Origin: an uncultured Candidatus Saccharibacteria bacterium | GTDB lineage: Bacteria; Patescibacteriota; Minisyncoccia; Phycocordibacterales; JAACPR01 | DNA length: 64,000 nt | Reading direction: 5' to 3' | NCBI GenBank assembly: GCA_964507955.1 | Contig: CAZDRR010000001.1 | Location: 344 to 64,343 of the forward strand | Shown here: positions 2,775 through 46,839 of the stretch, in pieces | How positions within the stretch are numbered: position 1 is the stretch's first letter | How the letters are laid out: every line of letters begins with the position of its first letter | Position numbers and translations under genes: made by a program | The notes under the pieces: generated by a model | What the model was told of the DNA's origin: nothing | Databases searched by the model: none | The model's input: only the letters and a program-made list of their open reading frames with translations

Positions 2775-2858
2775 ATTGATGATTACACTTTAATTTTAGT
2801 CGAAATAATTTAGAATTTTACTGATAAGTAAATTATCTATAAAGTGTAAAAATAACAG

Positions 2859-3614: not shown

Positions 3615-3657
3615 ATTATTAGTGTATGGATGCAACAATCCTGCGTAATAATCTACT

Positions 3658-4038: not shown

Positions 4039-4711
4039 TTTCAAATTTGAAGATAAAATAGATGATATCAATGATTTGCTATCCCGATATAGGGCTAAAT
4101 GGCAATTGAATGCCATTGCGTGGATGGATTATGATGATGTGTGTCAAATAATCCGTCTTCATTTTTATAATAAATGGCATTTGTGGAATCAGGATATGCC
4201 ATTCAAACCTTGGGCGTCAATGGTAATATCCAACCAGATGAAAAATATCGGTAGGAACAATTATTCCAACTTTGCCAAACCTTGTTTGAAATGTCCGCAT
4301 TTTCTTGGCAATGATGGTTGTGGGTGGACTAAAAGTGGAGTTCAGGATGAGGAATGCCCAGCAATGAAAAAATGGAAAGCTAAAAAAGAAAAAGTATATA
4401 ACCTGAAATTACCCCTTCCAATAGAAGAAGGGATCTTTATCGGACAAACTCATAAAGATGATCATTTCGACTATTCTTCTTCTGTGGATAGGCTACACGC
4501 TTCCATCATGGCGAAATTGAATGACAAGCACAAAATTATTTATGAAATGATTTATATTCATGGTAATACTGATGAGGAAATTGCGGAAAGATTCAAATTT
4601 AAATCTGATCCATCCAAACGCAAGCGCACACGTTATAAGCAAATAGCAAATCTAAAAAAGAAATTTTACGAATTGGCTGCAAAAATTTTAGAAGAGGAGG
4701 ATATCATATGA
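4028..4711 (+). CDS. hypothetical Cys/His-rich protein, possibly a divergent sigma-like or DNA-binding regulator
   Basis: CLKCPHFLGNDGCGW...ECP cluster; C-terminal segment EEIAERFKFKSDPSKRKRTRYKQIANLKKKFYEL resembles a sigma-70 region-4 style HTH; weak. Confidence 0.3.
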   Translation: MMSNFKFEDKIDDINDLLSRYRAKWQLNAIAWMDYDDVCQIIRLHFYNKWHLWNQDMPFKPWASMVISNQMKNIGRNNYSNFAKPCLKCPHFLGNDGCGWTKSGVQDEECPAMKKWKAKKEKVYNLKLPLPIEEGIFIGQTHKDDHFDYSSSVDRLHASIMAKLNDKHKIIYEMIYIHGNTDEEIAERFKFKSDPSKRKRTRYKQIANLKKKFYELAAKILEEEDII

Positions 4712-6710: not shown

Positions 6711-8577
6711 ACGCCTAGAGTTCTCATCCGCAGAGTTGGATAAAGAACTTGAAAAGTATGATGGCAAGCATATGTCGGAAGAAGATGCCAAATATTGGCT
6801 ATATCGTTTCTTGCGCAATAATGTAACTTATTCTGCCGAACTGTTCTTGGGCGTTAAATTATTCCCGTTCCAATCCATGGCAATCAAAGGAATGTTGATT
6901 TCCGATTATTCCATGTTTGTTTTTTCCCGTGGTATGTCCAAGACTTATTCTACGGCTATTTATATTTTAATGGAGTGTTTGCTTCACCCGAAAGCCAATA
7001 TTGGCGTTATCGCGGGATCATTCCGTCAGGCGAAGATGATTTTCCTAAAAATGGAAGATATTTTATCGAAACCAGAAGCAAAATTAGCTAGAGATTGTGG
7101 TTTCAAAATCACAAAAGGAACAGACATGTGGACTTTGGAACTAGGTAATAGTAAGGCTATTGCTTTACCTTTGGCTAATGGAGAACGTCTTCGTGGTTTC
7201 CGTTTTAATAGGATCGTTCTTGACGAGTTCATCACTATTCCAGAAAAGATCTTTACCGAAGTTATTCTTCCTTTCATTGGTGTTATCGAAAACCCTACGG
7301 AAAGAGAAGATTTGTATAATTTGGAAAGTCAGTTGATTGATGCGGGTGGAATGACGGAAAATGACCGTTATGTTTGGCCAAATAACAAATTAATCATTCT
7401 TTCTTCTCCCTCTTATAAATTTGAATACATGTATAAATTGTATAAAAAATATGAGGCTTTAATTTTTGGAGAGGACGCTTCTCAAGAGGATGATGATGAA
7501 GATACTGTGGATAATGCTTATCGGCTTATCATGCAATTAAGTTATGAGTGCGCTCCAGTAAGATTATATGACCAAAACTTGCTCAAGCAAGCTAAAGCAA
7601 CAATGTCCGAAATGCAATATGCAAGAGAGTTCGGGGCGCAGTTTGTTGATGAAAGTGATGGTTATTATAGATTGTCTAAAATGTCTGCCTGCACGATTCC
7701 AGAAGGGGAAAAACCTCATGTGGAAATTGTAGGCAATCCAAAAGATGAATATACTCTTTCTTTTGACCCTAACTGGGCTGGAAATAGCAGCGCCGACCAT
7801 TTCGCAATGCATGTTTTCAAGCTTTTAAGAGATGAACAAAAAGCCGTTCTAGTTCATAGTTATGCTATAGCTGGAGTGGATTTGAAACTACATATGTTTT
7901 ATTTCTTATATCTATTGACTCACTTCAATATTGTTGGAATGTGTGGTGACTATAACGGTGGGCTTCAATTCATCAATTCCTGCAATGAAAGCGAAATCTT
8001 TAAAAAGGCAGGAATTAATATTAAATTAATAGAAGTAGATTTGGACAAGCCAGAAGTCTATCATGATGATCTTTTAGAAATGAAGAATCAATATAATTTG
8101 AAAGATCGTCGTATTTGTATCTTGCGCAAACCAACTTCCAATTGGATCAGAATTGGCAACGAAATGCTTCAAGCCGCAATTGATCATAAACACATCTTAT
8201 TCGCATCAAGGGCTGTGGAAGAGGATTTTGATATCCAAAGGAAACAACATTTGCCAATCGAACAATTAAAATGGGATCTTGGGGTGCCGAAATCATCTCC
8301 AGATAGTCTGAAAATTGATTTTCTTGATCACCAAAAAACAATTATTGAATTAACAAAAACCGAATGTGCGAATATCGAAGTTGTCTCCAATCCTCAAGGT
8401 AGCCAATCTTTCCAATTGCCTCAAAATTTAAAAAGACAAACTGGACCTAATCGCGCCCGCAAGGACTCTTATTCAGCATTGGTCTTGGGTAACTGGTTCA
8501 ATAAGGTATTCTTTGATATGGGTAAGGTCAAGGCAGAAAAGCCACCAACAGCAACGTTTATTCCATTTACAATCTGA
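6682..8577 (+). CDS. terminase large subunit
   Basis: 631 aa; Walker A-like FSRGMSKTYS, Walker B IVLDEF, C-terminal acidic nuclease-like region; position before portal-size gene. Confidence 0.8.
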   Translation: MSWHKGIQNERLEFSSAELDKELEKYDGKHMSEEDAKYWLYRFLRNNVTYSAELFLGVKLFPFQSMAIKGMLISDYSMFVFSRGMSKTYSTAIYILMECLLHPKANIGVIAGSFRQAKMIFLKMEDILSKPEAKLARDCGFKITKGTDMWTLELGNSKAIALPLANGERLRGFRFNRIVLDEFITIPEKIFTEVILPFIGVIENPTEREDLYNLESQLIDAGGMTENDRYVWPNNKLIILSSPSYKFEYMYKLYKKYEALIFGEDASQEDDDEDTVDNAYRLIMQLSYECAPVRLYDQNLLKQAKATMSEMQYAREFGAQFVDESDGYYRLSKMSACTIPEGEKPHVEIVGNPKDEYTLSFDPNWAGNSSADHFAMHVFKLLRDEQKAVLVHSYAIAGVDLKLHMFYFLYLLTHFNIVGMCGDYNGGLQFINSCNESEIFKKAGINIKLIEVDLDKPEVYHDDLLEMKNQYNLKDRRICILRKPTSNWIRIGNEMLQAAIDHKHILFASRAVEEDFDIQRKQHLPIEQLKWDLGVPKSSPDSLKIDFLDHQKTIIELTKTECANIEVVSNPQGSQSFQLPQNLKRQTGPNRARKDSYSALVLGNWFNKVFFDMGKVKAEKPPTATFIPFTI

Positions 8578-8628
8578 AATTGAAAGTTGAAAAGTGACTT
8601 TTGAAAGTTTTAGTGTAACTTTTAAAGC

Positions 8629-10689
8629 ATGAACGACGGACAAAAAAGAGGCTATCAAAAACGATCTGATTATTGGAACAAGTTTCAGAAAAAAGATGTT
8701 TCCATAGAATCTTTTCTGACACCAACAACTACCTACGAACCAGAATTAATTGGTGAAAGTTTTTATCAGGCTTCGGCATCTACCACGTCGTCTGGTTCTT
8801 CCAATGCAAGCCGTAGCAATCGCATTCACAAATCTTCTACAAAGGATAGATTTAAAAATATTGCAGAGGGTCTTTTGCCATTCAATTATACTTCTGATTT
8901 GGTAAATGCGAGCGAAGCTATCGAGCTATGCCAAAAAGCTTACTTCAATATCCCTACTTATAGGGCTACGATAGATTTAATGGCTGAATTTGCTGATGCA
9001 GAACTCTATCTTGAAGGGGGTTCTGCAAATGCAAAAAAGTTCATTAATGCTTGGTGGAAGCGCATTCAAATACATAATTTGAAGGGGCAATTTTTCAGGG
9101 AATATTATCGTTCGGGAAATGTTTTCTTTTTTCGTTTTGACGGAAAATTTAAATCAAATCAATCCAAGAAGGTCATTGAAGCTTATGGAGCGACAAATGC
9201 CAGAGCAGGAGTCCCTGTGAAATATCTTTTGCTTAACCCAACTACAATCGGCACCAATTCTACCCTTTCTTTTGATAATAATTATTGTAAGATTCTTACT
9301 TCTTATGAAATTGCACGCTTGAAAAAACCTTTGACGGAACAAGAAAAAGAATTCTATGAAGCTTTACCTCCAGAAGTTAAACAATCTTTGCAAGCCTCCT
9401 CGCGAGTAGGAAACCATATCCAATTTCCATTGGATAAAAGCAGGTTACATGCTGTTTTCTTCAAAAAGCAAGACTATGAGCCTTTTTCAATTCCATTAGG
9501 TTTTTCTGTTCTTGATGATATCAACAAAAAACTGGAACTCAAGAAAATAGACCAAGCTATCGCGAGGACTATTGAAAACGTTATTCTGCTTGTTACAATG
9601 GGCGCGGAACCCGACAAAGGCGGAATCAATGCTGCGAATATGGCAGCAATGCAAAATATTTTCAAAAATCAAAGCGTAGGTCGGGTTCTTGTGGCCGATT
9701 ATACAACAAAAGCGGACTTTATCATTCCTGACTTGAATAAAGTTTTAGGTAAAGAAAAATACGAAGTTCTGAATAAGGATATTGAAGAAGGTTTACAAAA
9801 TGTATTACTTGGCGAATCAAAGTATGCGGATACTCAACTTAAATTGCGCATTTTCATGCAACGTTTGGAAGAGGCTCGCGAGGTTTTCCTTGTAGAATTC
9901 CTACAACCAGAAATCAAGAGAATCTGCCTAAATCTTGGTATTAAAAATATTCCAGAAGCAAAATTCAAAACAACTGATACTTTGGACAATGCAGATTTGC
10001 AGAAATTAGTTATTAGAATGACTGAATTGGGTATTCTAACTCCAGAACAAGGAATCTCCACAATCAATACGGGAGCGTTTCCAAAGGCAGAAGAACTCGC
10101 ACCAGCACAAGAAAAATTCCTTTCGGAACGCGAATTAGGCTATTGGACTCCTTTGGTGAACAGCATTCAAATTCAACAACAGGAAGATCAATTGAAGCAA
10201 CAAGAGTTCGATAATCAATTGGCGCTGAAACAGCAAAAACTGAGCGAAAAAACCGCTGAAAATCAAGTCAAGATCGCCAAACAAGCGGCTACTCAAAAAC
10301 AAGCGAATAATAAAACCGCATCTGTTTCTGGACCTTCGGGCGGAAGACCAATGGGAACATCGAAAGCCGAACAATACTCGGCCAAGAATATTTCCCAAGC
10401 CGTGAAATTGATCAACGAATTCGAATTAAGAGCTTTTAGGGATTTTGCTTTGAAATTTGGGCTTGAACAACTTGAAGGATCGAAGCAAGAAACTGTGGAA
10501 AAAATCTGCGAACAAATCATTTCTTCTACAGAAATAGGTGAATGGGATGATGTTCTGGCCAGCGTTGTTGAAGATATATCAAACTTGGCTGAGAAAAAAA
10601 TCTCGGATAATGTTCTACAAATTGCTGAAAAACACCAATTGGATGATTTAGCTGCATCAATTTTATATCATTCAACAAAAATTGTGTAA
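8629..10689 (+). CDS. portal protein (putative)
   Basis: 686-aa ORF immediately downstream of terminase; size and position typical; C-terminal Q-rich coiled coil; no motif-level confirmation. Confidence 0.5.
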   Translation: MNDGQKRGYQKRSDYWNKFQKKDVSIESFLTPTTTYEPELIGESFYQASASTTSSGSSNASRSNRIHKSSTKDRFKNIAEGLLPFNYTSDLVNASEAIELCQKAYFNIPTYRATIDLMAEFADAELYLEGGSANAKKFINAWWKRIQIHNLKGQFFREYYRSGNVFFFRFDGKFKSNQSKKVIEAYGATNARAGVPVKYLLLNPTTIGTNSTLSFDNNYCKILTSYEIARLKKPLTEQEKEFYEALPPEVKQSLQASSRVGNHIQFPLDKSRLHAVFFKKQDYEPFSIPLGFSVLDDINKKLELKKIDQAIARTIENVILLVTMGAEPDKGGINAANMAAMQNIFKNQSVGRVLVADYTTKADFIIPDLNKVLGKEKYEVLNKDIEEGLQNVLLGESKYADTQLKLRIFMQRLEEAREVFLVEFLQPEIKRICLNLGIKNIPEAKFKTTDTLDNADLQKLVIRMTELGILTPEQGISTINTGAFPKAEELAPAQEKFLSERELGYWTPLVNSIQIQQQEDQLKQQEFDNQLALKQQKLSEKTAENQVKIAKQAATQKQANNKTASVSGPSGGRPMGTSKAEQYSAKNISQAVKLINEFELRAFRDFALKFGLEQLEGSKQETVEKICEQIISSTEIGEWDDVLASVVEDISNLAEKKISDNVLQIAEKHQLDDLAASILYHSTKIV

Positions 10690-12884: not shown

Positions 12885-14021
12885 ATGAAAATTACCCTGA
12901 AAAAAACTGACGAGCAAGTTGCCTTGGTAAAGGCGATGGCAAGCAACAACCGTGATGAAGCTTATGAAGCGCAAGCTGCTGTAGCTACTCTGATGGGTCC
13001 AGTGCTTAATGAAGTGGTTAACAATGCTCCTACAGTGAGCAATGTTTTCACCACAATGTCTTTCAACGAAGACGACAATCCATCTCTTCCATTGGACTTG
13101 TTCCATGACATTACTGATGAAGATTTCATCACCGTTTACTCTCAACAAGTAGCGGGTGGTCTTCCATACAGCCAAGTGTTCCCTGCTCACAATGAATTGA
13201 AATTCACAACCTACAACCTTGATAGCGCGTTCGCTTTCGATAAGAAATACGCTCGCCGTTCCCGTTTGGACGTTGTTGGAAAGACATTCACCCGTATGGC
13301 GCAGGAAATCCTGTTGAAGCAAGAAAAAACCTCCTTCAATGTTTTGGCTTCCGCTCTTATCAACGCTCAAACCATCTCTACTGCGGGTGGTTCCAAGGCA
13401 AAGGGCAACCATATCATTGCAGCGACAACCGCTGATAGGTTCGTCTTGCATGATTTCAACCGTCTGATCACTCTTAGCAAGCGCATCAACGCTTCCTTCT
13501 CTAATGGAACTCCAGTTGGAGGTTCTAAGGTTGGGGTAACTGATTTGCTTGTATCTCCAGAAATGGTGCAAGAACTTCGTGCGATGGCTTACAATCCAAT
13601 CAACACATCCGAAGCTCCTTTTGGTTCGGCTCTTAAAGATTCGATTGCGGCTCCAGAAGCTCTTCGTATGCAACTCTATACCGCTGCTGGTCTTCCAGCG
13701 TTCTACGGCATCAACATTGTTGAAGTCCTTGAACTTGGTATCGGACAACGTTTCAACAAGATCTTTGATGCTCTTCTTACCGCCAATAGCGTATCGCTTT
13801 CTGGATGGTCTCAAACGGCTGACGAAATCTTGATTGGTATTGACCGCTCCCGCGATTCCTTGATTCGCCCTGTGGTTCAAGCCGAAGACGCTCCTTCGGA
13901 ATTCAATCTGATGGTGGATGATCAATTCGTTGGTCGCCAAAACAAGATTGGATATTACGGCAAGCTTGATGAAGGTCGTATGTGTATTGATGACCGCGCA
14001 TTAGTCGGTATCTACGTCTAA
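12885..14021 (+). CDS. major capsid protein (putative)
   Basis: 378 aa; highest GC/codon bias in the window; followed by a very strong terminator; canonical position after scaffold. Confidence 0.6.
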   Translation: MKITLKKTDEQVALVKAMASNNRDEAYEAQAAVATLMGPVLNEVVNNAPTVSNVFTTMSFNEDDNPSLPLDLFHDITDEDFITVYSQQVAGGLPYSQVFPAHNELKFTTYNLDSAFAFDKKYARRSRLDVVGKTFTRMAQEILLKQEKTSFNVLASALINAQTISTAGGSKAKGNHIIAATTADRFVLHDFNRLITLSKRINASFSNGTPVGGSKVGVTDLLVSPEMVQELRAMAYNPINTSEAPFGSALKDSIAAPEALRMQLYTAAGLPAFYGINIVEVLELGIGQRFNKIFDALLTANSVSLSGWSQTADEILIGIDRSRDSLIRPVVQAEDAPSEFNLMVDDQFVGRQNKIGYYGKLDEGRMCIDDRALVGIYV

Positions 14022-14037: not shown

Positions 14038-14069
14038 GGGTCGTCCCGCTGGGGCGACCCTTTTTTTTT
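14038..14069 (+). terminator. rho-independent terminator after capsid gene
   Basis: gggtcgtcccgctggggcgaccc hairpin plus T9 tract. Confidence 0.8.
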
Positions 14070-14103
14070 GTTTAAAATTTAGATTTTCTTTTTATCATAT
14101 AGT

Positions 14104-19567: not shown

Positions 19568-19606
19568 TTGAAATATTCGTTTTTGCGCCTATAATTTATC
19601 ATAGAA

Positions 19607-20467
19607 ATGAAAGAGATCTACACTTTTATCGCAACAAGCAAGGTTGAAAAACAAGTGCCAATTATGAAAAAGGTTGGCAAGGAAAATGTCCAATCTACAA
19701 AATCTGTAATTGAAGACGTAAAAACCAGAATTGTCTTCGTCAAGCCTTCAATGTCCACGGTGGAAGCTGCCGAATTCTTTTACGGACAAAAATTTAATGA
19801 ATATATTAATGCTGGTTTCTTGACCAGAGCCATGTTGAATAAAAAGATGGGGGATATTGGTGGACTAGCATCTAAAATGACTCAAGAGGGTCTTCAAAAA
19901 CTGATTCTGGATAATATCAATGCAACACAACTTGTAGAATTTTATGGAGGTTCTAAAACCCTCAACGAAGAACAAACTAAATTGCTGGAACAAGCTAAAG
20001 AAAAAATCGTTTCGACAAGAACTGAAATTTTGGAATACGAACAAGCCATGCGTTCCCAATTCTCGCAAACAGCAGATACTAAAGCAGAACAAAAATTAAT
20101 TGAATGGCTTGTTTTCAACCAATCTTTTTATGAAGAAGAAGTTGATAATAAGAAACAACTTTTCCCATTGTTCGCTGGCGACTCCTTCGATGAAAAAAGA
20201 GCTTTATATTTGGAACTTTGCGAAGATATCTCAGATATCCAAGATCCAACTGTTTTAAAAATTAAAAACATTTTTGACCAATCTTTCTCTACTTTGGTAA
20301 GGGTAGCGAGCATTTGGTATAATAAAATTGCAGATACTCAGGAAACGATTGATAAAGCTTTGCAGGAAATGTTTGACGATACAGAAGTAAAAGTTGATAC
20401 ATTGACCTCTCCTGAACAAGCTCAAGATGAAACAGGAGCAACAATCGAAGCTTCTCAAGAGGGCTAA
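19607..20467 (+). CDS. putative tail assembly chaperone (G-like)
   Basis: 286 aa; second-to-last gene before tape measure; 41-nt overlap with next ORF in a different frame. Confidence 0.4.
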   Translation: MKEIYTFIATSKVEKQVPIMKKVGKENVQSTKSVIEDVKTRIVFVKPSMSTVEAAEFFYGQKFNEYINAGFLTRAMLNKKMGDIGGLASKMTQEGLQKLILDNINATQLVEFYGGSKTLNEEQTKLLEQAKEKIVSTRTEILEYEQAMRSQFSQTADTKAEQKLIEWLVFNQSFYEEEVDNKKQLFPLFAGDSFDEKRALYLELCEDISDIQDPTVLKIKNIFDQSFSTLVRVASIWYNKIADTQETIDKALQEMFDDTEVKVDTLTSPEQAQDETGATIEASQEG

Positions 20468-37190: not shown

Positions 37191-38897
37191 TTATTCTTTA
37201 ATGTTCAAAGTAATGATATCGTTGCCATGATGCAAGTAATCCAAATGTTTTTGAGTCCCAATATGAGGCAGAAAACAAATTTCGAAATATCCTTTATGAG
37301 ATCCTTGTCCTTCCATCATGAATAAATTTTCCATATGAGGATGAAAATCAAGCACTTTATAGATGAACCTATTGCCTAAAAGAATTTCTTTGAATTGGGG
37401 CTTTGTAGCGAAATAAATGTCTTTATCTGGATAAGCCTTTTTGATTGATGGCAGCAAAGCTGTAGATAAAAAGACATCTTCTTCGGATTCTGGCATCACG
37501 AACAAAATACGATCTTTCCTTTCTTTATCTAAAAATGAATCAAAAGGAATCACTTTTAATTCTTCGGAAGGCTTGGCATTTTTGAAACTTATTATGGGTT
37601 GCTTTACTGTTTCGAGAATTTTTCCTTTTAGATTCTCAACAATTTTCTCAACGCTAAATTCTGCTTCTATCCATTTCTTGCCATTATCAACTAATTCTTG
37701 TTTTCTCTCTTGATCCAATCCATAAACATACAACAATGTATTACATATCGAATTAGCGTCGGTAGAAGCTTTGATGAATTGGGATTGGGGTTCTCTATAT
37801 TCATGCCATTTTAAAGGAAGTCCCCCTTGATGCTCATAGCACGAATCTGTGCCACAAGAGTATTCTGTAACCAATGTAATTAAGCCTGCGGCTTTAGCTT
37901 CTTGAATTGGTAATTCTTGCCCTCCAGAAGTAAATGGATGACAATATACGTCCATACAATTATAAACTTCATTTAATTGTTCCTCGGTTAATCCAGCAAT
38001 CGCTGTTTTTGTTTTAAAGGTTTTGGCCGAATTGCAGAATGGGCAATTAATTTCCGCACCTTCAAAATTTTTAATAGAATATCGTCCGCAAGAACTACAA
38101 CGATAAGTTGCTAAAACATCATGCGGACTAATCTTCTTTTCTTTTAAATATCGAACGATATCCCAGCCAGCTTGATTATCTCCCCAATCCGTATGCAAAA
38201 TTAGTTTAGCTTCTGGAACTATTTGTTTGAATAATTTAAATCCATCTAGGAGATTTGGAACAGATTTTCTCAATTGATTTTTGAAAACAAAACCTATGAC
38301 AAAATTTTTATCAAGGCCGTGTCTTTGGCGAATTTCGCGTCTATTTTCAAGAGGTTTAAAATGATTTAAATCAATAGCCCCATGTATTGTTGAAATATTA
38401 TGAATGCCAAATTTTTTCATTTCCTGTGTGGCGAAATCAGCCCAAACAAGAAATTTGTCGCAAGACTTCGCCATAATCATAGATTCTTCCATCAATGGAA
38501 GGCTGTCTAACGTTGTCCAAATGATTTTATGGGTAGTGTTCCACCAAGGCTTTGCAACGAAGCCAGAGAAGGCCCAAATGTCTTCAATGCCTACGTAAAC
38601 ATCTGGTTTTACAATATCAATAATCTTGTCTATTTCGTAATAGCCATATGATGCAGCGCGGTTTTTAAACGGATCGTTTGCAATTGAAGCCAATACTTCT
38701 GGATTCTCTGTCATAGTTCCATAACAAGGCCAAGGAGTCTTAACATCCCTACCAAATGGAACGCCATTCGCTGCTTCATAAACCTCAATATCTGGATCAT
38801 TATGCAATGCGAGAAGAACATTCTTCATGTTCTTCCCGAATCCAGTAACCATTCTACTGTAATTAGAATGAAAAAGAACTTTGATTTTCTTGTTCAT
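37191..38897 (-). CDS. GT4-type glycosyltransferase with inserted zinc ribbon and C-terminal GT9 N-domain-like module
   Basis: GT-B C-domain E-x7-E region GGQELPIQEAKAAGLITL; inserted CSSCGRYS...CPFCNS; C-terminal 150 aa (ILFVMPESEEDVFLSTALLPSIKKAYPDKDIYF...) resemble the N-terminal domain of WaaC/WaaF-type GT9 enzymes. Confidence 0.6.
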   Translation of the reverse strand: MNKKIKVLFHSNYSRMVTGFGKNMKNVLLALHNDPDIEVYEAANGVPFGRDVKTPWPCYGTMTENPEVLASIANDPFKNRAASYGYYEIDKIIDIVKPDVYVGIEDIWAFSGFVAKPWWNTTHKIIWTTLDSLPLMEESMIMAKSCDKFLVWADFATQEMKKFGIHNISTIHGAIDLNHFKPLENRREIRQRHGLDKNFVIGFVFKNQLRKSVPNLLDGFKLFKQIVPEAKLILHTDWGDNQAGWDIVRYLKEKKISPHDVLATYRCSSCGRYSIKNFEGAEINCPFCNSAKTFKTKTAIAGLTEEQLNEVYNCMDVYCHPFTSGGQELPIQEAKAAGLITLVTEYSCGTDSCYEHQGGLPLKWHEYREPQSQFIKASTDANSICNTLLYVYGLDQERKQELVDNGKKWIEAEFSVEKIVENLKGKILETVKQPIISFKNAKPSEELKVIPFDSFLDKERKDRILFVMPESEEDVFLSTALLPSIKKAYPDKDIYFATKPQFKEILLGNRFIYKVLDFHPHMENLFMMEGQGSHKGYFEICFLPHIGTQKHLDYLHHGNDIITLNIKE

Positions 38898-39523
38898 TAA
38901 AATGGAACATCGTCGTCAACATCATTGTCATCTACTTCTTCCGATTGGGAATTTTTGGAATTGGAAGATTGATTGTCTAAACCGAAATCATCATCATTTT
39001 GATTCTTATCGTTTTGTTTATTGTCAGGACGGAATTCTTCCTTCGCAGCATATAAAACTTGGGCAATAAATTCTTTTAAAAGAACGGCTAAAACTTCCGT
39101 TTCTCCAGCTTCTAAAGCAATCTTGAATGTCAATGCGGAATTTTTAACAATAGAAAGGCCAAAAGCATCAGAATCATAAGTCAAATTCTCATCTTTACCT
39201 TTGATTGTTCTTGGCTTATCCCAAGGAGTAAATTTGATAGAAGTTGAATCGTCGTTATTCTTATGGAAGGTAGCATAAGGAATTCTCGTCTTTAGAGATG
39301 ACAGTAATTCTCCAGCTTCATTCGCATTTAACTTGATTGTAATTGATTTTTTAGGGTTCTTAGCATTTTCTTTAAAAGACCCTGTTTTTGAGTTATCATT
39401 CCAACTGCTTTGGAGGACTGCGGAAACGAATAAAGCTACTCCTCCATCTCGGAGAGTGCCGATTTCAAAGCTCATTGCGCAACCATTATTTTTTGAGTTC
39501 GGTTTATAAAGAGTGTATTTCAT
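38897..39523 (-). CDS. ssDNA-binding protein candidate with bacterial-SSB-like acidic tail (DDDVPF)
   Basis: C-terminus ...EEVDDNDVDDDVPF closely mimics the E. coli SSB tail tip DDDIPF; long acidic/Asn-Gln linker before it; start placed at MKYTLYKP (alternatives 39475 or 39640). Confidence 0.45.
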   Translation of the reverse strand: MKYTLYKPNSKNNGCAMSFEIGTLRDGGVALFVSAVLQSSWNDNSKTGSFKENAKNPKKSITIKLNANEAGELLSSLKTRIPYATFHKNNDDSTSIKFTPWDKPRTIKGKDENLTYDSDAFGLSIVKNSALTFKIALEAGETEVLAVLLKEFIAQVLYAAKEEFRPDNKQNDKNQNDDDFGLDNQSSNSKNSQSEEVDDNDVDDDVPF

Positions 39524-39562
39524 TTTGAAATAAGTGTAATTTCTTCTGACATATTGTAAAAG

Positions 39563-41116
39563 ATGTATTCCAAAATTCAACCCCAACAAATCAATTTGCA
39601 TACATTTTCCAGCCCAAGCGGACATTTTACGATTTCGCAAGGTTCCGATTATGTTTATCTTGATTTAAACAAGTATTTAACTGGAGATTTTAATTTTACA
39701 GGAAATATTTTAATTAATGGATCTCCTATTTTTACATCGGATACCACTAATGTCGTTGATCATTCTGATAATTTAATTTTATTGGGATCAAATAATACAG
39801 CCAATGGAACAGGAAACGTCATTGTAAATTCTATTTCAACAACAATTCATGGAACGAATAATCTTGTTTTAAATTCTTTTCCTGCTGGAACTTTTGACCA
39901 AAGCGTTACAAAATGCACAATTTTAGCAGGAACTTATGCTGGATTTAATAATAGTATTTCTGGATCAACTATTTTAAAAGATCAATCCAATTCAACATCT
40001 TGCACCGCTACAAAAAATAATGCTCTTTATGTTTCTTTTGTTGGAGGGAGTTATTTTGATGGCAATGTTAATTTTAGTAATTCTGTTTCTCTGGAAGATT
40101 TTGCCGATTTAAAATTAGCATCACAAAGTTCGGGCCTCTTTTCTGGAGATATTAATGTTTTAGGTAATATCTATTGGAAAAATACTTTAATTCCTTCTAT
40201 TAGTGATGTTACAGGAATTAGCGGAAGCTTACAGACTCAAATTACCAATTCTGGAGCTTTGTTAACAAGCGATTTAGACGCCTTAGAATTTCTTGTTACT
40301 GGAACATCTACAAATCTAAGTGGCAAAAGTGTTTTTACAACAGGCGATCAAACAATTTCTGGAATTAAAACTTTTTATAATGATATCCTTTTATCTTCTT
40401 CTTCTTTAATTGGAGATACGGGAATAAGTAACTTTATTCAATTTGCGGATAAAAACGTCGTTAATTCTTCTGGTGATTTGCTCAAAATAGTTTCAAAAGA
40501 CTCTTGCGCTATTTTAATTGATTCTAATGATACTAAGTCTGGAGATTCAAATTTCTTTAATGGAGATACTTCTTTCAATAATTCTTTTGTTATTGGTAAG
40601 GGATTTGATGATTTGGATGGGGCAGATCCTTTAATGGCAGTAGATTACTATGGCAATTTAGTTGTTACTGGAAATTTAATCTTAAAAAATAGTGCGGGAT
40701 TAGTGCCTACTGGAGATTCTGACGCTATAGGAACTCATGGAGCTTTTGTTCAAAAAAATCAATATCTTTACATTAAAAATAACAATACTTGGATGAGATT
40801 CTCTGGAATCAGCACTTGGGATAATTCTAATCCAGATATCATCGCAGCGGGTTATCAAATTGTGCCAAATAATGGAACTGCCAATAGTCATGGATTTTTC
40901 CGCTCAAATGGCACTACACCAAGTTCTTCTGGACTTGATCTTGCCAGCGGCATATATACGGCAACCGTTATTTCTCCACCAGTATTAATTGCATGGTCCT
41001 ACACAACCTCAGATGCGCAATGGCCAAGTTATGCGGAGTGTTCAATAAGCACTCATACTATCAGAACAACTTATGATTTGGAAAATGAAGCCTTTTATGT
41101 AAAGGTTATTTCTTAA
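39563..41116 (+). CDS. beta-helix tail fibre/tailspike-like protein
   Basis: 517 aa; Asn/Gly/Ser/Thr-rich short repeats typical of right-handed beta-helix receptor-binding or depolymerase proteins; lone + gene; start overlaps divergent neighbour, so one start is miscalled. Confidence 0.45.
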   Translation: MYSKIQPQQINLHTFSSPSGHFTISQGSDYVYLDLNKYLTGDFNFTGNILINGSPIFTSDTTNVVDHSDNLILLGSNNTANGTGNVIVNSISTTIHGTNNLVLNSFPAGTFDQSVTKCTILAGTYAGFNNSISGSTILKDQSNSTSCTATKNNALYVSFVGGSYFDGNVNFSNSVSLEDFADLKLASQSSGLFSGDINVLGNIYWKNTLIPSISDVTGISGSLQTQITNSGALLTSDLDALEFLVTGTSTNLSGKSVFTTGDQTISGIKTFYNDILLSSSSLIGDTGISNFIQFADKNVVNSSGDLLKIVSKDSCAILIDSNDTKSGDSNFFNGDTSFNNSFVIGKGFDDLDGADPLMAVDYYGNLVVTGNLILKNSAGLVPTGDSDAIGTHGAFVQKNQYLYIKNNNTWMRFSGISTWDNSNPDIIAAGYQIVPNNGTANSHGFFRSNGTTPSSSGLDLASGIYTATVISPPVLIAWSYTTSDAQWPSYAECSISTHTIRTTYDLENEAFYVKVIS

Positions 41117-41490
41117 AATTCAATAATTGCAGATTTTGTCTCAATTTTCTTTGGCGTATCTTTTAAGTGCTTTTTACCCTTATTTTTCTTCTTATAATCG
41201 TCAAAGAATTTACGTTTAACAGGATCTTCTCCAGTTGCAGATGCCCGTTTTTCAGAAAGTTCGGCAGATAAATCCATCATATCTCCAACAGTTCCTTTTT
41301 TGGAACCTGTTTTATTTACGAAATCTTTTGCAGAATGAGGATCAATAGTTGTATCTATTGAGGCATTTGGAATAGTAAAAATTCTTTTCCACGCAATACC
41401 ATCTTGGTAATACTCATGTTTGTCATTCATGCCTTGGAGAATTTCTTTGATTTCTCCAGTTTCTTCATTCTGGTAAAGGTAAAGTGGCAT
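41113..41490 (-). CDS. hypothetical basic protein
   Basis: 125 aa; Lys-rich C-terminus. Confidence 0.4.
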   Translation of the reverse strand: MPLYLYQNEETGEIKEILQGMNDKHEYYQDGIAWKRIFTIPNASIDTTIDPHSAKDFVNKTGSKKGTVGDMMDLSAELSEKRASATGEDPVKRKFFDDYKKKNKGKKHLKDTPKKIETKSAIIEF

Positions 41491-42569
41491 TATAGCATCT
41501 TTGTTAAAATTTGATCAACTGTATTTTTATAAGTAAATTGTTTCCCCATTATCAATCCGTTTGTATTGACGGTTTTGGCTTTTAATACCGCTCTTTCCAT
41601 ACCATCAATCAAAGAATCTTCGCTAAGAAGAAAGTAATTGCCCTGATTAAAAGGAAGACCTTTTCTGAAAAAGAAATTATCGTAGCACGGTTGTTCTCCG
41701 ACAGGCTCAACAAGAATTGAATTATCTTCTGTAGCCCAATCTTTATGAGAAGAACAATTAGAAACTACCGACCATTTTCCTAAAGCCGTCGTATTAAATG
41801 CCCCCATATTCCAACCCTCTCCATTCGAAAAACCAGATAAATCAATATCTATAGCGTTCATCAATTCAAGAACTTCGGAATTTGTATCGAGCGATGGAAG
41901 AAAATTGATATTTGTCCACTCTTTATCCCCAAGGGTTTCTTGTAAAATTTGTTTGTATTGTTCTGGAGTAAAAAAGGGATTATTGACAAGGCAAGTTAAT
42001 AAATATTTTGGGTCGTTGCCATATTTTTTCAACCAAGTTTGGATAATTTGTCGAGTATTTTTCCTGCGTTCAAATTTTCCAATTAATCCAAAATGTATAA
42101 CGTCATCGTTAAACTTTTTATCAATTACATGAAAGTCTTCGTCAAATCCTAAAGGAACATGGGAAACATTATCGCAGCCAGCATTTTTAAAGATATTTGC
42201 GGCAATGGAACTTGAAAAGAAAACATGTTCTTGACTTTTCACTAAAGCGATTTCTTCTTGGGTTGGAGAAGAAACTTCGTAATATGTATAAAGAAATTGT
42301 TTTGGAGCAATTCTGTTTTCAGAACCATTGATATGCCAATTTTTAAGAACAGGATACTTTTTGTCCAACGTTTTGAATCTATTCTGTCCAGATTCCTTAA
42401 TCCAATCAATGAATTCTTTTGGAGCTTTGTCGAAGGCTTGGAAATTAGCCTGATCGCCTACGGGGAAAAGGGAAACTTCGGCATTTCTTTTCCAAAGTTC
42501 CTTTAAAAAATTCATTGATACATTCCCTAAACTCAAGGAATTGATGGGGCCATTAAAGTGAAGTTTCAT
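41490..42569 (-). CDS. GT-B glycosyltransferase (GT1/GT4-like)
   Basis: HFGLIGKFERRKN and SGFSNGEGWNMGAFNTTALGKWSVVSN resemble GT-B C-domain sugar-donor binding motifs. Confidence 0.55.
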   Translation of the reverse strand: MKLHFNGPINSLSLGNVSMNFLKELWKRNAEVSLFPVGDQANFQAFDKAPKEFIDWIKESGQNRFKTLDKKYPVLKNWHINGSENRIAPKQFLYTYYEVSSPTQEEIALVKSQEHVFFSSSIAANIFKNAGCDNVSHVPLGFDEDFHVIDKKFNDDVIHFGLIGKFERRKNTRQIIQTWLKKYGNDPKYLLTCLVNNPFFTPEQYKQILQETLGDKEWTNINFLPSLDTNSEVLELMNAIDIDLSGFSNGEGWNMGAFNTTALGKWSVVSNCSSHKDWATEDNSILVEPVGEQPCYDNFFFRKGLPFNQGNYFLLSEDSLIDGMERAVLKAKTVNTNGLIMGKQFTYKNTVDQILTKML

Positions 42570-43146
42570 TTTCTTCTATTTTTTTGAGAATTTTTGAGAG
42601 ATTTTTATCATGTATTCCAATACATCCTTGAATAGATAGATTCATTTTTTCGGCAACTTCTTTCCATGCTTTTAATTTCCCGTTAGTTGTAGAAAAATAT
42701 CTTTCCATAAAGATTTCTTTGATACGCTTATCAGTAAATGAGTCAAGAGCTTTATTAATTTTTTCAAGCAATTCACTTTTCTCCATGGCGCAATCAGGGC
42801 TATCACTTTCCGAAGGAAGACAATAACCTAAAGAATCGAAATCTACAATATTCGCGCTTTTTTTGTTATTTGTTTTGTTTGTCAAACATAAGTATCTTGT
42901 GCGTAAAGCTAAAAAAGTAGAAAATTTGCTTTTTGTTGGATCGTAATTTAATGCCGCATTATAAATATTGTAATTCTTTTCAAGCATTAAATCGTCAAAT
43001 TGGGTATCTGTCAAACTTGATCCACCATACTTCATTATCATGTCAACGTAAATACCAGAATGTCTTTGGATCAATTCATCCAAAGCCATAGGATCATTTT
43101 CTTGTTTAACTTTATCTACTAATTGGCTATCTAAAATTTCTGTCAT
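42553..43146 (-). CDS. sigma-70 family RNA polymerase sigma factor (phage-encoded)
   Basis: 197 aa; region-2-like FSTFLALRTRYLCL and C-terminal region-4-like segment (KEVAEKMNLSIQGCIGIHDKNLSKILKKI). Confidence 0.6.
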   Translation of the reverse strand: MTEILDSQLVDKVKQENDPMALDELIQRHSGIYVDMIMKYGGSSLTDTQFDDLMLEKNYNIYNAALNYDPTKSKFSTFLALRTRYLCLTNKTNNKKSANIVDFDSLGYCLPSESDSPDCAMEKSELLEKINKALDSFTDKRIKEIFMERYFSTTNGKLKAWKEVAEKMNLSIQGCIGIHDKNLSKILKKIEENETSL

Positions 43147-43745
43147 AGAAAATACTTAATATTGTTCATAACGAAAGACTCACACAATTTTTTTGACATG
43201 ATTTTCAAATCTTCTGGAGTTTTGGCGGAAGGCCAATCTATTTGAAAGTCTGCATTTTTATGCAGGACTGGATCATTGCGTTTTTCGTCTTCGTTTGGAG
43301 CTTTAAAATATTTCTTTTTGTCTGCCACAAGATCAAAGCGTTTAATATGAATTAATTTACCATTTTGATTTTTAAGCCAAAACAATTCATCCGCTTCGTT
43401 GTCAGCATATCGAATATCTGAAATGATATATACGTCGGCTTTCTCAATGTCCATTCTTTGTTGCAACATAGATGTGAAATATCCGCCTTTGGTAGCTATT
43501 CGCTTGGCATATCCATAAGCGACCAATAAAGGGCGAAATCGTTCTTTTTCTTCACCATCTAATTCAAAGACATCGACATTAAATTTTTCTTTTAAGAAAG
43601 GGGCCATTTCTTCTTTTAAGCACTGCGCTAAAGAAACCCTCTGAACGTTAAGATTTGGAAAGGAATTTTTGATTTCCTTTTCCAAGGCGTCCGCGATTGT
43701 ATCTTTTCCAGAACGAGCTAATCCTGATACTCCAATAATTTTCAT
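43143..43745 (-). CDS. deoxynucleoside monophosphate kinase (T4 gp1-like)
   Basis: MKIIGVSGLARSGKDTIAD closely parallels the T4 gene 1 N-terminus MKLIFLSGVKRSGKDTTAD; 200 aa. Confidence 0.7.
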   Translation of the reverse strand: MKIIGVSGLARSGKDTIADALEKEIKNSFPNLNVQRVSLAQCLKEEMAPFLKEKFNVDVFELDGEEKERFRPLLVAYGYAKRIATKGGYFTSMLQQRMDIEKADVYIISDIRYADNEADELFWLKNQNGKLIHIKRFDLVADKKKYFKAPNEDEKRNDPVLHKNADFQIDWPSAKTPEDLKIMSKKLCESFVMNNIKYFL

Positions 43746-44251
43746 AATCCTGTGCTGCCAAAGCCTCCTTCTCCTCTTTCGGATTCGCCCACTTCGCCAA
43801 CCTCCAAAGTTGGAACGGAAACTGGCATGAACACCAATTGGGCAATTTTATCTCCTTTTTTGTAAATGTTTTGAAAGCCTGACCAATTGCTGACACTTAC
43901 CTGAATCCCAATTAAATCCTTGAAAACAAGATCTTTGGGCTGAATAATGTATTTAAATCGGACAATTAAATTTCCTTTGTAAGAAGGGTCAATGACACCT
44001 ACAGAATTTGCCAAAACCAAATCGTATTTTGACAAAGAGGATCTTGGGATAATCATCGTAAAAAATCCCTGTGGGGGATTTACTTTTACACCAGTATCAT
44101 ACTCAATATAGTCAATTCTTGTCCAATCACCATTAAAATTCTTTTCTCCAACAATTTTTGGATCTGTGGCTGCGATCAAATCGAATCCTACGTCTCCCTC
44201 AAGTGCTGGGGTGCGGATGCCATCTAAATTAGAAACCGTTGCTTTCGACAT
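43742..44251 (-). CDS. dut: dUTP diphosphatase
   Basis: dUTPase motifs GDVGFDL, RSSL, VGVIDPSYKG, and C-terminal glycine-rich motif. Confidence 0.85.
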   Translation of the reverse strand: MSKATVSNLDGIRTPALEGDVGFDLIAATDPKIVGEKNFNGDWTRIDYIEYDTGVKVNPPQGFFTMIIPRSSLSKYDLVLANSVGVIDPSYKGNLIVRFKYIIQPKDLVFKDLIGIQVSVSNWSGFQNIYKKGDKIAQLVFMPVSVPTLEVGEVGESERGEGGFGSTGL

Positions 44252-44295
44252 TGCCTTATAGTAAATTTTGTGTTCGAAATGTCAAGAACTTTTTA

Positions 44296-44333
44296 CGATT
44301 ACAAAAAAAGTTGCCCGATTACAAAAAAAGTTG
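44296..44333. repeat. two tandem 18-bp direct repeats cgattacaaaaaaagttg (2-bp spacer)
   Basis: Exact copies at 44296-44313 and 44316-44333 in the dut/RNR divergent intergenic region. Confidence 0.8.
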
Positions 44334-44513
44334 TTGAATTCCTTTTTTTCGTGCCTATATATTTAAGTGGGTTCTGATGGATCAAACTTAATCTTACGAT
44401 AACCAAATTTAACTATAACTTCGTTTAGTTTAAATATAGTTACGTTAAAGTTATTTAATTACTCACTACGTTCGTAATTAAATGGGAAATTTGGGTTCCG
44501 AGCAAAAAAGTTC

Positions 44514-44541
44514 TTGACAAGAAAAATTTCCTTGTTATAAT
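44514..44541 (+). promoter_or_regulatory. consensus sigma-70-type promoter TTGACA-16-TATAAT directed toward the RNR gene
   Basis: TTGACA at 44514-44519 and TATAAT at 44536-44541; about 290 nt upstream of the RNR start. Confidence 0.55.
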
Positions 44542-44630
44542 TAAAAAGTCCAAGCTAGTTGCGACAAAGTTTCGCACTTGATCAATTCCGATTATTGGGC
44601 TAAGGTTACGACAAAATTAAAACGCCCAAT

Positions 44631-44658
44631 GGGACTCACAAGTTCGTCCCCCTTTTTT
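44631..44658 (+). promoter_or_regulatory. terminator-like hairpin within the RNR 5' leader (possible attenuator/riboswitch expression platform)
   Basis: gggac-tcacaagttc-gtccc followed by cctttttt then aaaaaa; lies between the promoter and the start codon. Confidence 0.4.
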
Positions 44659-44835
44659 AAAAAATTATTTCTAAGACTCTGTGCTAACGTCAAAGTTCCG
44701 ACTTCTTCTTCGAAGAAAAGCTAGTGAAATCTCGCAAGCTCGATTTCATATTATACATCGCGTTTATGAAAAATTTTTGGCAAAAATGTGTTGCCAATTT
44801 TGGATATCGCGTTAGAATGTGTAAGATAAGAGACT

Positions 44836-46839
44836 ATGATTGACGTGCGCGATTTACGACAAAATGAGGTTAGAGAGTATCATGAAAAATATTGCATTTC
44901 CGAACTACTTCCAGAAGATTTTTTAAACAAATACAAGAATAAACAGCCTAATTGGGGCTTTAATGGGTTGGGCTATATTGTTTACAAAAGGACTTACGCT
45001 AGAGAAATTGTCAAGGGATTGACGGAGGAATGGTGGGAAACAGTTGCTCGTTGCGTTAACGGTGCGCAAAAAATTGGTGCGAAATATTCTGTTGAAGAAG
45101 CCCAAAGATTATATGATCTAGTCTTCAATTTAAAATGTAATTTTGCAGGACGAATGCTTTGGCAGTTGAATACGTCAACTGTTGAAAGATTCGGACTTGC
45201 CAGTTTGCTCAATTGCTGGTATTGCGCGATGAGGGACATTGATGACTTTTGTTTTGTATTTGAACATTTGATGTTAGGTGGGGGAGTGGGTTTTTCGGTC
45301 AAAAGGGAAGACGTTCATGAACTGCCTAGAGTTAAAAAAGGAGTAAGGATTACTCATGAAAAAACCAAAGATGCTGATTTTATTGTCCCTGATTCTCGAC
45401 AAGGATGGGTTGAATTGTTAAGAAAAACCATGCAATCATTTTTTGTCACGGGTAAATCTTTTTCATATTCAACAATTCTTGTGCGTGGCGCTGGAGAAAA
45501 AATTGCTGGATTCGGCGGCACTGCGAGCGGCCCACAAATCTTGATAGACGGAATCCAACAAATCGCGAATATTATCGCGAAAAGAGAAGGTAAAAAATTG
45601 CGTTCAATAGACGTTTTAGATATTAACAATATTATTGGCGATATTGTTGTGGCGGGCAATGTCAGGAGAAGTGCGGAAATTGCAATTGGAGATGCGGATG
45701 ATTATTTATATTTAAGGGCTAAAAATTGGAGTAATGGCAATATTCCAAACTGGAGGAGTAAATCGAACAATAGTATTGAAGCAGATTCATTTGAACACAT
45801 CAGCGATGAACTTTGGGAAAATGGTTATGTTCTTGATCCAAAGACAGGATTAGCAAAAGGCGAAGCTTACGGCTTCATCAATTTACAACTTTGTAAACAA
45901 TATGGGCGCTTAGGGGAAGAAAGAAAGGAAAACTGCGAAGGAGTTAATCCATGTGCGGAAATCACTCTTGCGGATGGGGAAGCATGTAATTTGGCAGAAC
46001 TTTATTTAAACAATATTGATTCTAAAGAAGAATTAATTGAATGTGCGAAACTACTTTATAAAACCCAAAAAGCGGTTTGGAATCTACCAGCACTTTACGA
46101 GAAAACAGAAAAAATTGTTTCCAAGAACAGGCGTATTGGGCTTGGAGTAACAGGTGTATGCCAATCTCTTGATAAACTTGATTGGTTGGACGAATGTTAC
46201 GTTACTCTTAGAGAATATGATAAAGAATGGAGTGCGCAAAATGGACTTCCAGAGAGCATCAAATTAACAACAGTTAAGCCAAGCGGCACCCTTTCCTTAT
46301 TGGCTGGATCAACAGCAGGAGGACATGCGGGCTATTCTCGTTGGATGATCAGAAGAGTAAGAATGGCTTCAACAGACCCTCTTATCAAGTTGTGCAGAGA
46401 AGCTGGATATAAAACCGAATACCTGTTACGCTTTGATGGAACAGAAGATTATTCTACAACTGTTGTAGAATTTCCTTGTGAGTTTTCTCCAGAAACCGTA
46501 TTGGCGAAAGATTTATCGGCTGTGGACCAAATGAATTTGGTGAAAAAGTTACAGACAATTTGGGCTGACAATTCCGTATCGGTGACGATTTATTATCAAC
46601 CAGAAGAATTGGATTCCATCAAAGATTGGATGAAGGAAAATTATAAAAATAGCACGAAAACACTAAGCTTTTTAATGCATAACAAACACGGATTTAAACA
46701 AGCTCCATTAGAAGAAATTTCCGAAGAAACATATCGCAAGATGATTAAAAAAGTTAAACCAATTGAACAAATTTTTGATATTGGTTCTACTCTCATTGAA
46801 GGTTTGGAATGCGAAGGAGGAGCATGTCCATTGAGGTAA
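44836..46839 (+). CDS. ribonucleotide reductase, class II-like (B12-dependent type), monomeric size
   Basis: 667 aa; active-site VNPCAEITL...EACNLAELYLNN matching RNR NPC[GA]E...CNL.S motifs; C-terminal CEGGAC redox pair; no NrdB-like partner in window. Confidence 0.6.
   Translation: MIDVRDLRQNEVREYHEKYCISELLPEDFLNKYKNKQPNWGFNGLGYIVYKRTYAREIVKGLTEEWWETVARCVNGAQKIGAKYSVEEAQRLYDLVFNLKCNFAGRMLWQLNTSTVERFGLASLLNCWYCAMRDIDDFCFVFEHLMLGGGVGFSVKREDVHELPRVKKGVRITHEKTKDADFIVPDSRQGWVELLRKTMQSFFVTGKSFSYSTILVRGAGEKIAGFGGTASGPQILIDGIQQIANIIAKREGKKLRSIDVLDINNIIGDIVVAGNVRRSAEIAIGDADDYLYLRAKNWSNGNIPNWRSKSNNSIEADSFEHISDELWENGYVLDPKTGLAKGEAYGFINLQLCKQYGRLGEERKENCEGVNPCAEITLADGEACNLAELYLNNIDSKEELIECAKLLYKTQKAVWNLPALYEKTEKIVSKNRRIGLGVTGVCQSLDKLDWLDECYVTLREYDKEWSAQNGLPESIKLTTVKPSGTLSLLAGSTAGGHAGYSRWMIRRVRMASTDPLIKLCREAGYKTEYLLRFDGTEDYSTTVVEFPCEFSPETVLAKDLSAVDQMNLVKKLQTIWADNSVSVTIYYQPEELDSIKDWMKENYKNSTKTLSFLMHNKHGFKQAPLEEISEETYRKMIKKVKPIEQIFDIGSTLIEGLECEGGACPLR

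Follow-up and report, generated by a model that had tools for sequence, protein, structure and literature searches.

What is encoded in the 584 bp (positions 44252–44835) that separate a dUTPase gene from a ribonucleotide reductase gene and form the largest non-coding gap of the window, the whole 64,000-nt stretch of DNA analyzed here? The window is part of an uncultured phage genome, and the gap lies between dut (43742–44251, minus strand; Pfam dUTPase) and the gene for a monomeric class II ribonucleotide reductase (RNR; 44836–46839, plus strand). It is a divergent control region heading two operons, a leftward one with dut, a deoxynucleoside monophosphate (dNMP) kinase and a sigma-like factor, and a rightward one with RNR, glycosyltransferases, and recombination and replication genes. 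Comparison with related phages establishes three conserved promoters of predicted sigma-70 type and, following the strongest of them, a conserved non-coding segment with at least one covarying hairpin. Our best overall explanation, to which we give roughly even odds (a probability of about 0.5), is that the region combines back-to-back promoters with a conserved, structured, cis-acting leader ahead of RNR, which also has a proximal promoter of its own.

Only two relatives share the full synteny, L271 (L271/L272) and L273, with RNRs 78–79% identical to that of the window; a partial relative, L270, provides 120 nt upstream of RNR. RNRs that are 69–74% identical stand in other contexts, behind one simple promoter and a leader of ~25–35 nt. 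In ~140 RNR loci from IMG/VR and JGI metagenomes the protein is at most 68% identical and the gaps are not alignable with that of the window; most of these loci have the order sigma-like gene, 359-residue gene, helix-turn-helix (HTH) gene and RNR on one strand. Searches of the gap by blastn and tblastx against 149 related loci returned only identical Logan copies, and tblastx found nothing in the relatives. The only other divergent dut/RNR layout from our first searches is in L139 (2647–2985), with promoters close to the RNR ATG and a 339-bp, AT-rich gap packed with TACGT (TATACGT / ACTATA-type) repeats, a hint that repeats containing CG may be a recurrent trait of such control regions.

The rightward operon is preceded by a distal promoter, P_dist, that matches the sigma-70 consensus at 12 of 12 positions (TTGACA-16-TATAAT, 44514–44541, plus strand), has TG before its −10 hexamer and is the only such perfect match when both strands of the 64 kb are considered. 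A perfect promoter arose in none of the 2000 first-order Markov simulations of the region from which we took chance levels. A preliminary description of the region, made from the letters of the DNA, had proposed this promoter, and we regard it as real, as it is perfect in both syntenic relatives as well, with a 16-nt spacer whose sequence is unrelated. The whole element (44505–44541) is made up of the right arm of a 15-nt inverted repeat (AAAAAGTTCTTGACA), the 16-nt spacer and TATAAT, and its predicted start is at ~44548. Back to back with it on the minus strand, P_dut (44258–44285) consists of TTGACA (44285–44280), a 16-nt spacer and TACTAT (44263–44258); the dut ATG (44251) comes 6 nt after the end of this −10, so the dut mRNA would be leaderless or nearly so. 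Minus-strand promoters adjoin dut in L271 (TTGACT-16-GATAAT) and L273 (TTGACT-16-TATAAT), and also in L139 and L010. Both syntenic relatives keep P_dut, P_dist and a third promoter, the proximal P_prox, and in all three promoters the hexamers are conserved with unrelated spacers, the pattern expected of real promoters.

P_dut and P_dist each contain one arm of a perfect 15-nt inverted repeat, TGTCAAGAACTTTTT at 44280–44294 (an element without strand, comprising an A-tract and the −35 of P_dut) and AAAAAGTTCTTGACA at 44505–44519, each arm being an A-tract plus a −35 hexamer; inverted repeats of at least 15 nt occurred in 3.5% of simulations. The same symmetric module of A/T-tract and −35 is found in L271 and L273, where the two −35 hexamers are 23 nt apart, compared with 228 nt in the window. 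In phage contigs unrelated to the window, AAAAAGTTCTTGACA recurs as a generic module of strong promoters. One of these contigs, L223 (IMGVR_UViG_3300007538_000076), has six exact copies within 542–8793, each followed 16–18 nt on by a −10-like hexamer (TTACAT, TTATAT or TATAAT), with several copies preceding a Shine-Dalgarno sequence and two preceding a tRNA-like sequence, and looks to carry a repeated strong-promoter cassette.

P_prox (44791–44824, plus strand), a weaker promoter than P_dist, combines TTGCCA-16-TAGAAT (44791–44818) with the hexamer GTGTAA (44819–44824), 17 nt before the RNR ATG. Its counterparts are TTGCCA-17-TAAGAT in L271, TTGCAA-16-TACAAT in L273 and TTGTAA-17-TAGTAT in L270, which thus keeps P_prox too; each is followed by GTGTAA, the spacers are unrelated, and in L271 and L273 the RNR ATG comes 18–19 nt after GTGTAA. 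The leader predicted for P_prox transcripts is ~10–12 nt long and has no Shine-Dalgarno sequence. Whatever gene lies upstream, 52 of 77 distinct relatives have GTGTAW 17–28 nt before the RNR ATG, where 0.017 would be expected. In the window GTGTAA occurs only 18 times over both strands of the 64 kb, and eight genes have it on the correct strand 15–29 nt before their ATG (at 2844, 8613, 10684, 16968, 21322, 29050, 39534 and 44819), the gene-linked copies usually following an A/T-rich, −10-like hexamer. To our knowledge, GTGTAA matches no described promoter type. It probably serves as a promoter or initiation motif specific to the phage, which the sigma-like protein may recognize, or alternatively as a signal for translation.

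The conservation of P_prox (44791–44818) also changes how the transcript from P_dist is to be seen. The preliminary description had RNR expressed from P_dist through a 290-nt leader, and of this proposal the promoter stands, but RNR expression need not pass through this leader, which may not even be its principal route. Sigma-70-like promoters lying 4–11 nt before start codons were seen at dut (44251–44285, minus strand), at the gene starting at 19607 (19568–19609) and in L273 (2716–2752). Promoters that abut start codons in this way would produce leaderless or near-leaderless mRNAs, which fits the near-total lack of Shine-Dalgarno sequences among the genes of the window.

After P_dist comes a non-coding stretch of ~245 nt in the window and ~165 nt in the relatives, and as far as P_prox the window, L271 and L273 have a common order of features: a short 5′ hairpin (HP1), a (T/G)(A/G)CGAC motif followed by CAGGG or TGGGAC, a purine run (GAAGAAAAG), the hairpin HP3, and the hairpin HP4 followed by T-rich sequence. 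HP1 (44560–44576, plus strand; TGCGA-N7-TCGCA, −4.7 kcal/mol) begins 12 nt after the predicted start, and at the same relative place L271 and L273 have GCCGC-N3-GCGGT, whose G-U closing pair fits the plus strand only. HP3 (44725–44748, plus strand) has a conserved loop on a covarying stem, and reads TGAAATC / loop TCGCAAGCTC / GATTTCA in the window, AGATATTCT-TCGCCAAGCTC-AGAATATCT in L271 and L270, and AGAAATTAT-TCGCCAAGCTC-ATAATTTCT in L273. The loop, TCGC(C)AAGCTC, is identical at 10 of 11 positions, and in a loop-anchored alignment (A9) 96% of cells are paired (33–48% in slid controls) and six of nine pairs are changed on both sides, this covariation being drawn from three distinct sequences. 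G-U pairs in HP3, as in HP1, fit the plus strand. The chance of a 10/11 loop match together with a perfect 7-bp inverted repeat in a 243-nt leader would be ~1e-6, which is a rough estimate and not a computed test.

HP4 (44777–44797, plus strand; TTGGCAA-N7-TTGCCAA and then TTTTGG, −6.6 kcal/mol) is terminator-like, and its 3′ arm doubles as the −35 of P_prox. Its counterpart in the relatives, a covarying hairpin of 6 bp that has a TAAA loop and is followed by a T-rich tract, stands just upstream of the proximal −35; four of its six pairs are changed on both sides, and its folding energy is −1.1 to −5.4 kcal/mol. We list HP4 as terminator-like in the window and L273, and L271 is not listed. RNAalifold predicts HP3 and HP4 from the relatives alone, and over both hairpins 97.9% of cells in the relatives are paired and 6 of 16 pairs have changes on both sides. 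The leader contains no shared reading frame: among the four sequences the conserved ATGTGTAA, with its ATG, takes up three different frames with respect to RNR, and the gap ORFs of 25, 31 and 48 residues are not conserved. The preliminary description had suggested a cis-regulatory RNA, and this idea survives in altered form, with a conserved hairpin (HP3) showing compensatory changes in the stretch transcribed from P_dist, but with a different hairpin from the one then proposed, which is not conserved. A further hairpin, TTTCATA-N14-TATGAAA (44744–44771, −2.6 kcal/mol), shares sequence with the 3′ arm of HP3 and cannot form together with it; part of it falls in an insert found only in the window, and it may have arisen by coincidence. 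The 25-codon ORF (44766–44843, MKNFWQKCVANFGYRVRMCKIRDYD) overlaps the RNR start by 8 nt and is not kept in L270, L271 or L273.

The linear motif of the leader belongs to a recurring one. TTACGA occurs four times on the plus strand of the region, compared with 0.2 expected (P ~5e-5), always in the same direction and at irregular spacing; its recurrence had been noticed before, and the enrichment is borne out, with one copy at a conserved position. There the (T/G)(A/G)CGAC core aligns with TTACGAC in L271 and GTGCGAC in L273, and the best local alignment between the window and L271 covers the TTACGAC motif; 11 of 500 shuffles reached its score. A related repeat is the 12-mer TTACGACAAAAT, found at 44606–44617 and again at 44854–44865 (plus strand, RNR codons 7–10); both copies are real, but the second starts at 44854 and not, as previously given, at 44857. 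Some 12-nt direct repeat is present in 7.5% of simulated regions, and a match of this length between the leader and the first 60 nt of the coding sequence in 0 of 300 shuffles. The first copy lies in the 23-nt loop of a 7-bp ATTGGGC/GCCCAAT hairpin (44594–44630, plus strand, −7.6 kcal/mol) whose stem is not seen in the relatives. The RNR of the window has a 7-residue N-terminal extension, MIDVRDL (44836–44856), that is absent in its closest relatives and holds the second TTACGACAAAAT. The leader/coding-sequence repeat has no equivalent in L271 or L273 and suggests a local duplication of leader sequence into the RNR start.

Several observations weigh against a conserved cis-acting leader. The element is present in only three independent sequences and one partial one, which are too few for covariation statistics, and the HP3 alignment rests on hand-trimmed, loop-anchored arms, built in this way because MAFFT mis-registered the hairpins of the window. 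Covariance models from the three relatives (R1 and R2) miss HP3–HP4 of the window (44700–44810) at E ≤ 10; the models are nearly sequence-specific (effective sequence number 1.8–2.1), and the window has a 29-nt insert between the two hairpins. Leader similarity is marginal, with the 11 of 500 shuffles that match the score against L271, and there is none against L273; leader folding energies are unexceptional (z −1.1 to −1.7). HP4 is very weak in L271 (−1.1 kcal/mol) and, being a near-perfect DNA palindrome with a 2-nt center in the relatives, could be a protein site. The RNR relatives at 69–74% identity have no such leader, and IMG/VR pattern scans with the HP3 loop, the 18-mer described below and the promoter module gave unrelated hits only and no further members. 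The promoters themselves were scored on the sigma-70 consensus, which may not be that of the host: there are hints of a host among the Flavobacteriaceae, and the main sigma factor of this family would not be expected to recognize TTGACA/TATAAT. The Bacteroidetes −7 motif TAnnTTTG is neither enriched nor well placed.

The other conspicuous features of the gap, which is 584 bp long in the window compared with 295 bp in L271 and 284 bp in L273, fall largely in segments found in the window only. An insertion of ~205 bp (44295–44504) contains a pair of 18-bp repeats, a weak third promoter and AT-rich inverted repeats, and further window-specific segments lie at ~44636–44710 (~75 nt, in the leader) and ~44749–44776 (between HP3 and HP4). 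The repeats (CGATTACAAAAAAAGTTG, plus strand, 44296–44313 and 44316–44333, period 20) are exact, as had been described, and beyond chance: they give the best Tandem Repeats Finder score in the window, and an 18-nt repeat arose in 0 of 2000 simulations. Each copies the A-tract/GTT part of the promoter module, with A7 tracts every 20 bp, and the second recreates a third copy of that module (AAAAAGTTGTTGAAT), in which AAAAAGTTG precedes a weak, unconserved promoter-like site (44334–44363, plus strand; TTGAAT-18-TATATT, 9/12). The repeats are not in L271 or L273, and the 18-mer has only four hits in IMG/VR, all unrelated. The AT-rich segment (44410–44483, no strand) holds an 8-bp inverted repeat (44410–44417/44435–44442) and a 10-bp one (44453–44462/44474–44483); the former is present as the preliminary description had it, but is at chance level, 54% of simulated regions having such a repeat with a short loop. 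Judged by these alignments, the 20-bp duplication copies part of the promoter module, and the 18-bp repeats, the AT-rich inverted repeats and a hairpin with a T-run in the leader, GGGAC/T6, are insertions or duplications specific to this phage that are missing in its nearest relatives.

This last hairpin had been the centerpiece of a different proposal, in which GGGAC-N10-GTCCC plus T6, within the 290-nt leader, forms an attenuator or riboswitch platform that would control RNR in response to a metabolite such as B12 or deoxynucleoside triphosphates (dNTPs). The hairpin exists as described (44631–44658, plus strand: GGGAC at 44631–44635, a 10-nt loop, GTCCC at 44646–44650, CC, and T6 at 44653–44658), its position is between a strong promoter and RNR, and a comparable hairpin with T6 is uncommon by chance (0.4% of simulations, with criteria set post hoc). 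But it is weak, with a 5-bp stem of −6.1 kcal/mol, a 10-nt loop, and CC between the stem and T6, compared with −18.8 kcal/mol for a real terminator of the same genome that we took as the standard (14039–14071; GGGTCGTCCC-GCT-GGGGCGACCC plus T9), and a terminator scan missed it, its loop being too long for the scan. That reference terminator lies directly after a 378-residue gene (12885–14021) taken as the capsid gene. The GGGAC arm aligns to the conserved CAGGG, but the 3′ arm and T6 lie in the ~75-nt segment (44636–44710) that has no counterpart in L271 or L273; the preliminary description had itself stated that non-conservation of the hairpin in related genomes would refute its proposal, and by that standard this part of it fails. 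The view of the region as highly structured fares no better, since the predicted leader folds no more stably than shuffled sequence (z −0.66 to −1.74). At gathering score, Rfam matched nothing in the 64 kb; at E ≤ 10 the hits in 44100–45000 were to miRNAs, snoRNAs and ribozymes and no better than chance, and L270, L271 and L273 had none, so that neither cobalamin (RF00174) nor another RNA family matched. With its defining hairpin a lineage-specific insertion and a conserved promoter between that hairpin and the gene, attenuation strikes us as highly improbable.

The same features could instead delimit a separate small RNA, an alternative that we regard as unlikely. Here the P_dist RNA would end at T6 (~110 nt) and/or at HP4 and its U-tract (~250 nt here, ~160 nt in the relatives) and act in trans through the HP3 loop or the TTACGAC loop, with RNR expressed from P_prox only. 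A perfect promoter, terminator-like ends (HP4 in the window and L273) and the rarity by chance of a hairpin with T6 are all in keeping with this, as is a conserved apical loop, which is typical of a pairing or binding surface; the conserved P_prox makes the upstream RNA dispensable for RNR transcription. The terminators, however, are weak (−1.1 to −6.6 kcal/mol, compared with −18.8), the T-run begins 4 nt after the stem in the relatives and L271 is not listed as terminator-like, the HP3 loop has no complementary target in the 64-kb window, and no Rfam family matched. At the opposite extreme, the promoters would be all that matters, and the rest would be a neutral, fast-evolving spacer inflated by duplications and insertions, with functionless hairpins. 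The variable gap length (584 bp compared with 284–295 bp), the poor similarity and unexceptional folding energy of the leader, and its lack in more distant relatives would all follow, but HP3 keeps 10 of 11 loop positions between perfect but different arms in three lineages whose surroundings have diverged beyond alignment, and we therefore hold this explanation to be very unlikely.

Function at the level of DNA, which we also think unlikely, would have the TTACGA-type direct repeats, the 20-bp repeats, the phased A-tracts, the AT-rich inverted repeats and palindromes such as HP4 bind a regulator (the HTH protein at 41113–41490 or the sigma-like protein) or form an origin with iterons, an unwinding element and P_dist as the source of a priming transcript. 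It would account for the enriched and co-directional TTACGA copies, for the A7 tracts every 20 bp, for the L139 divergent gap, AT-rich and full of TACGT repeats, and for HP4 of the relatives, which unlike an RNA hairpin is a perfect palindrome with a 2-nt center. Set against this, the exact repeats number only two and both lie in the window-specific insertion, the TTACGA copies follow no regular spacing, NrdR boxes are absent, and in HP3 the arms vary and the center is conserved, the opposite of a typical operator. Cumulative GC skew has a local minimum at 44.0–44.8 kb, but this switch coincides with the switch of coding strand and is not independent of it; we rejected GC skew as evidence for an origin, as it is confounded by gene orientation.

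If back-to-back promoters and a cis-acting leader are indeed what the gap contains, the host RNA polymerase would use P_dist as the strong early promoter for the rightward operon, and its transcript would pass weak hairpin/U-tract sites (GGGAC with T6 here, HP4 in all) into RNR and the rest of the operon. The conserved hairpins would act in cis, by stabilizing the 5′ end, by pausing or partial termination, or by binding a factor, much like the antitermination sites of early leaders in other phages. P_prox with GTGTAA would then allow expression at a later time without the leader, for which the phage may use its own sigma-like protein. More specifically, and tentatively, the P_dist RNA may be a new phage RNA element, limited so far to a small clade of uncultured freshwater phages, in which the hairpin with the loop UCGC(C)AAGCUC and (U)UACGAC would recruit a phage or host factor that controls elongation, stability or translation of the RNR/replication operon. 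In this particular phage, the exact UUACGACAAAAU copy in RNR codons 7–10 would turn the leader into a decoy or second site for that factor. Should this be true, it would be an RNA-based switch for deoxynucleotide supply that is unrelated to NrdR or any known riboswitch.

Functional hairpins of whatever kind would mean that a cis-regulatory or small RNA not described so far stands where the nucleotide-metabolism and replication operon of an abundant lineage of uncultured freshwater phages begins; functionless ones would leave an ordinary divergent promoter region enlarged by local duplications. In either case the style of expression is unusual, with consensus promoters abutting start codons, no Shine-Dalgarno sequences, and GTGTAA ~15 nt before starts, and could help to predict genes, promoters and hosts of such metagenomic phages.

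The genes around the gap are arranged in blocks. Structural genes occupy ~2.8–35 kb on the plus strand and are followed by a minus-strand block (35.3–44.25 kb) that contains, outward from the gap, dut, the dNMP kinase, the 197-residue sigma-like protein (42553–43146), a glycosyltransferase-like protein and the 125-residue HTH protein (41113–41490). From 44836 to at least 62545 all genes are on the plus strand, among them RNR, glycosyltransferases, sugar epimerases, a UvsX-like recombinase, a DnaB-like helicase, a primase, an exonuclease and a DnaE-type polymerase. No tRNA or tmRNA was found. A large protein search placed an RNR identical to that of the window on a 139-kb NCBI contig as well. 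INPHARED phage genomes gave no DNA match, the closest RNRs of isolates are only 47–50% identical, and the capsid has no match among isolated phages. For the host, an epimerase homologue search gave mixed taxa. Inside the minus-strand block, a plus-strand ORF of 517 residues (39563–41116) is preceded by the GTGTAA at 39534, overlaps the start of the gene at 38897–39640 and has no family match. Insertions of ~0.5–1 kb were seen in RNR genes of L053, L054, L057, L058, L132–L135, L140, L144, L271, L273 and L399; those in P0003, P0004 and P0011–P0013 carry LAGLIDADG and intein-splicing domains, and the RNR of the window has none.

How does the region compare with known systems? NrdR boxes, which stand upstream of bacterial nrd operons, are described as two 16-bp partial palindromes 15–16 bp apart (PMC13584703). 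The gap is likewise upstream of RNR, and its AT-rich half-palindromes TAACTATA / TATAGTTA loosely resemble NrdR half-sites, but they are 17 bp apart instead of adjacent, and nothing in 44252–44900 matches ACACWATATATWGTGT within three mismatches. With iteron origins the region shares direct repeats, phased A-tracts, AT-rich inverted repeats, a promoter and a GC-skew turning point; it differs in having only two exact repeats, which are unconserved, in the confounded skew, and in that no initiator gene was identified adjoining it. At least three regular, conserved direct repeats by an unwinding element, as an iteron origin should have, are not found in the region. Intrinsic-terminator attenuators and riboswitch platforms, cobalamin RF00174 included, likewise have hairpins and U-tracts between promoter and metabolic gene, but here there is no Rfam aptamer, the candidate terminator is not conserved and has a promoter downstream of it, and the stems are weak.

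Phage early regions offer further parallels. Nucleotide-metabolism genes of T4 are expressed by early read-through and from middle promoters, and like the divergent early regions of lytic and temperate phages with tandem promoters, of which T4 is an example, the window has back-to-back strong consensus promoters of host type heading two operons. As in early regions that combine early with middle or late promoters, it has a second promoter near the gene, a sigma-like protein of its own and the phage-wide GTGTAA. It differs from them in leaders that are extremely short or absent and have no Shine-Dalgarno sequence, and any timing here is deduced from the DNA sequence. Cis-acting RNA sites are present in phage early leaders, as exemplified by lambda nut (boxA plus the boxB hairpin) and HK022 put, and the leader described here resembles these in having a hairpin with a conserved loop and variable stem, together with a conserved linear motif, after a strong promoter and before a long operon. 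Unlike them it has no similarity to boxA or boxB (no sequence match was tried beyond Rfam), no N-like or Q-like protein was identified, and only the rightward operon has the element, so that the resemblance, drawn by analogy, is one of position and architecture and not of membership. The promoter architecture of the region is ordinary, and the HP3/HP4 leader is a candidate for a new RNA element of a known general kind.

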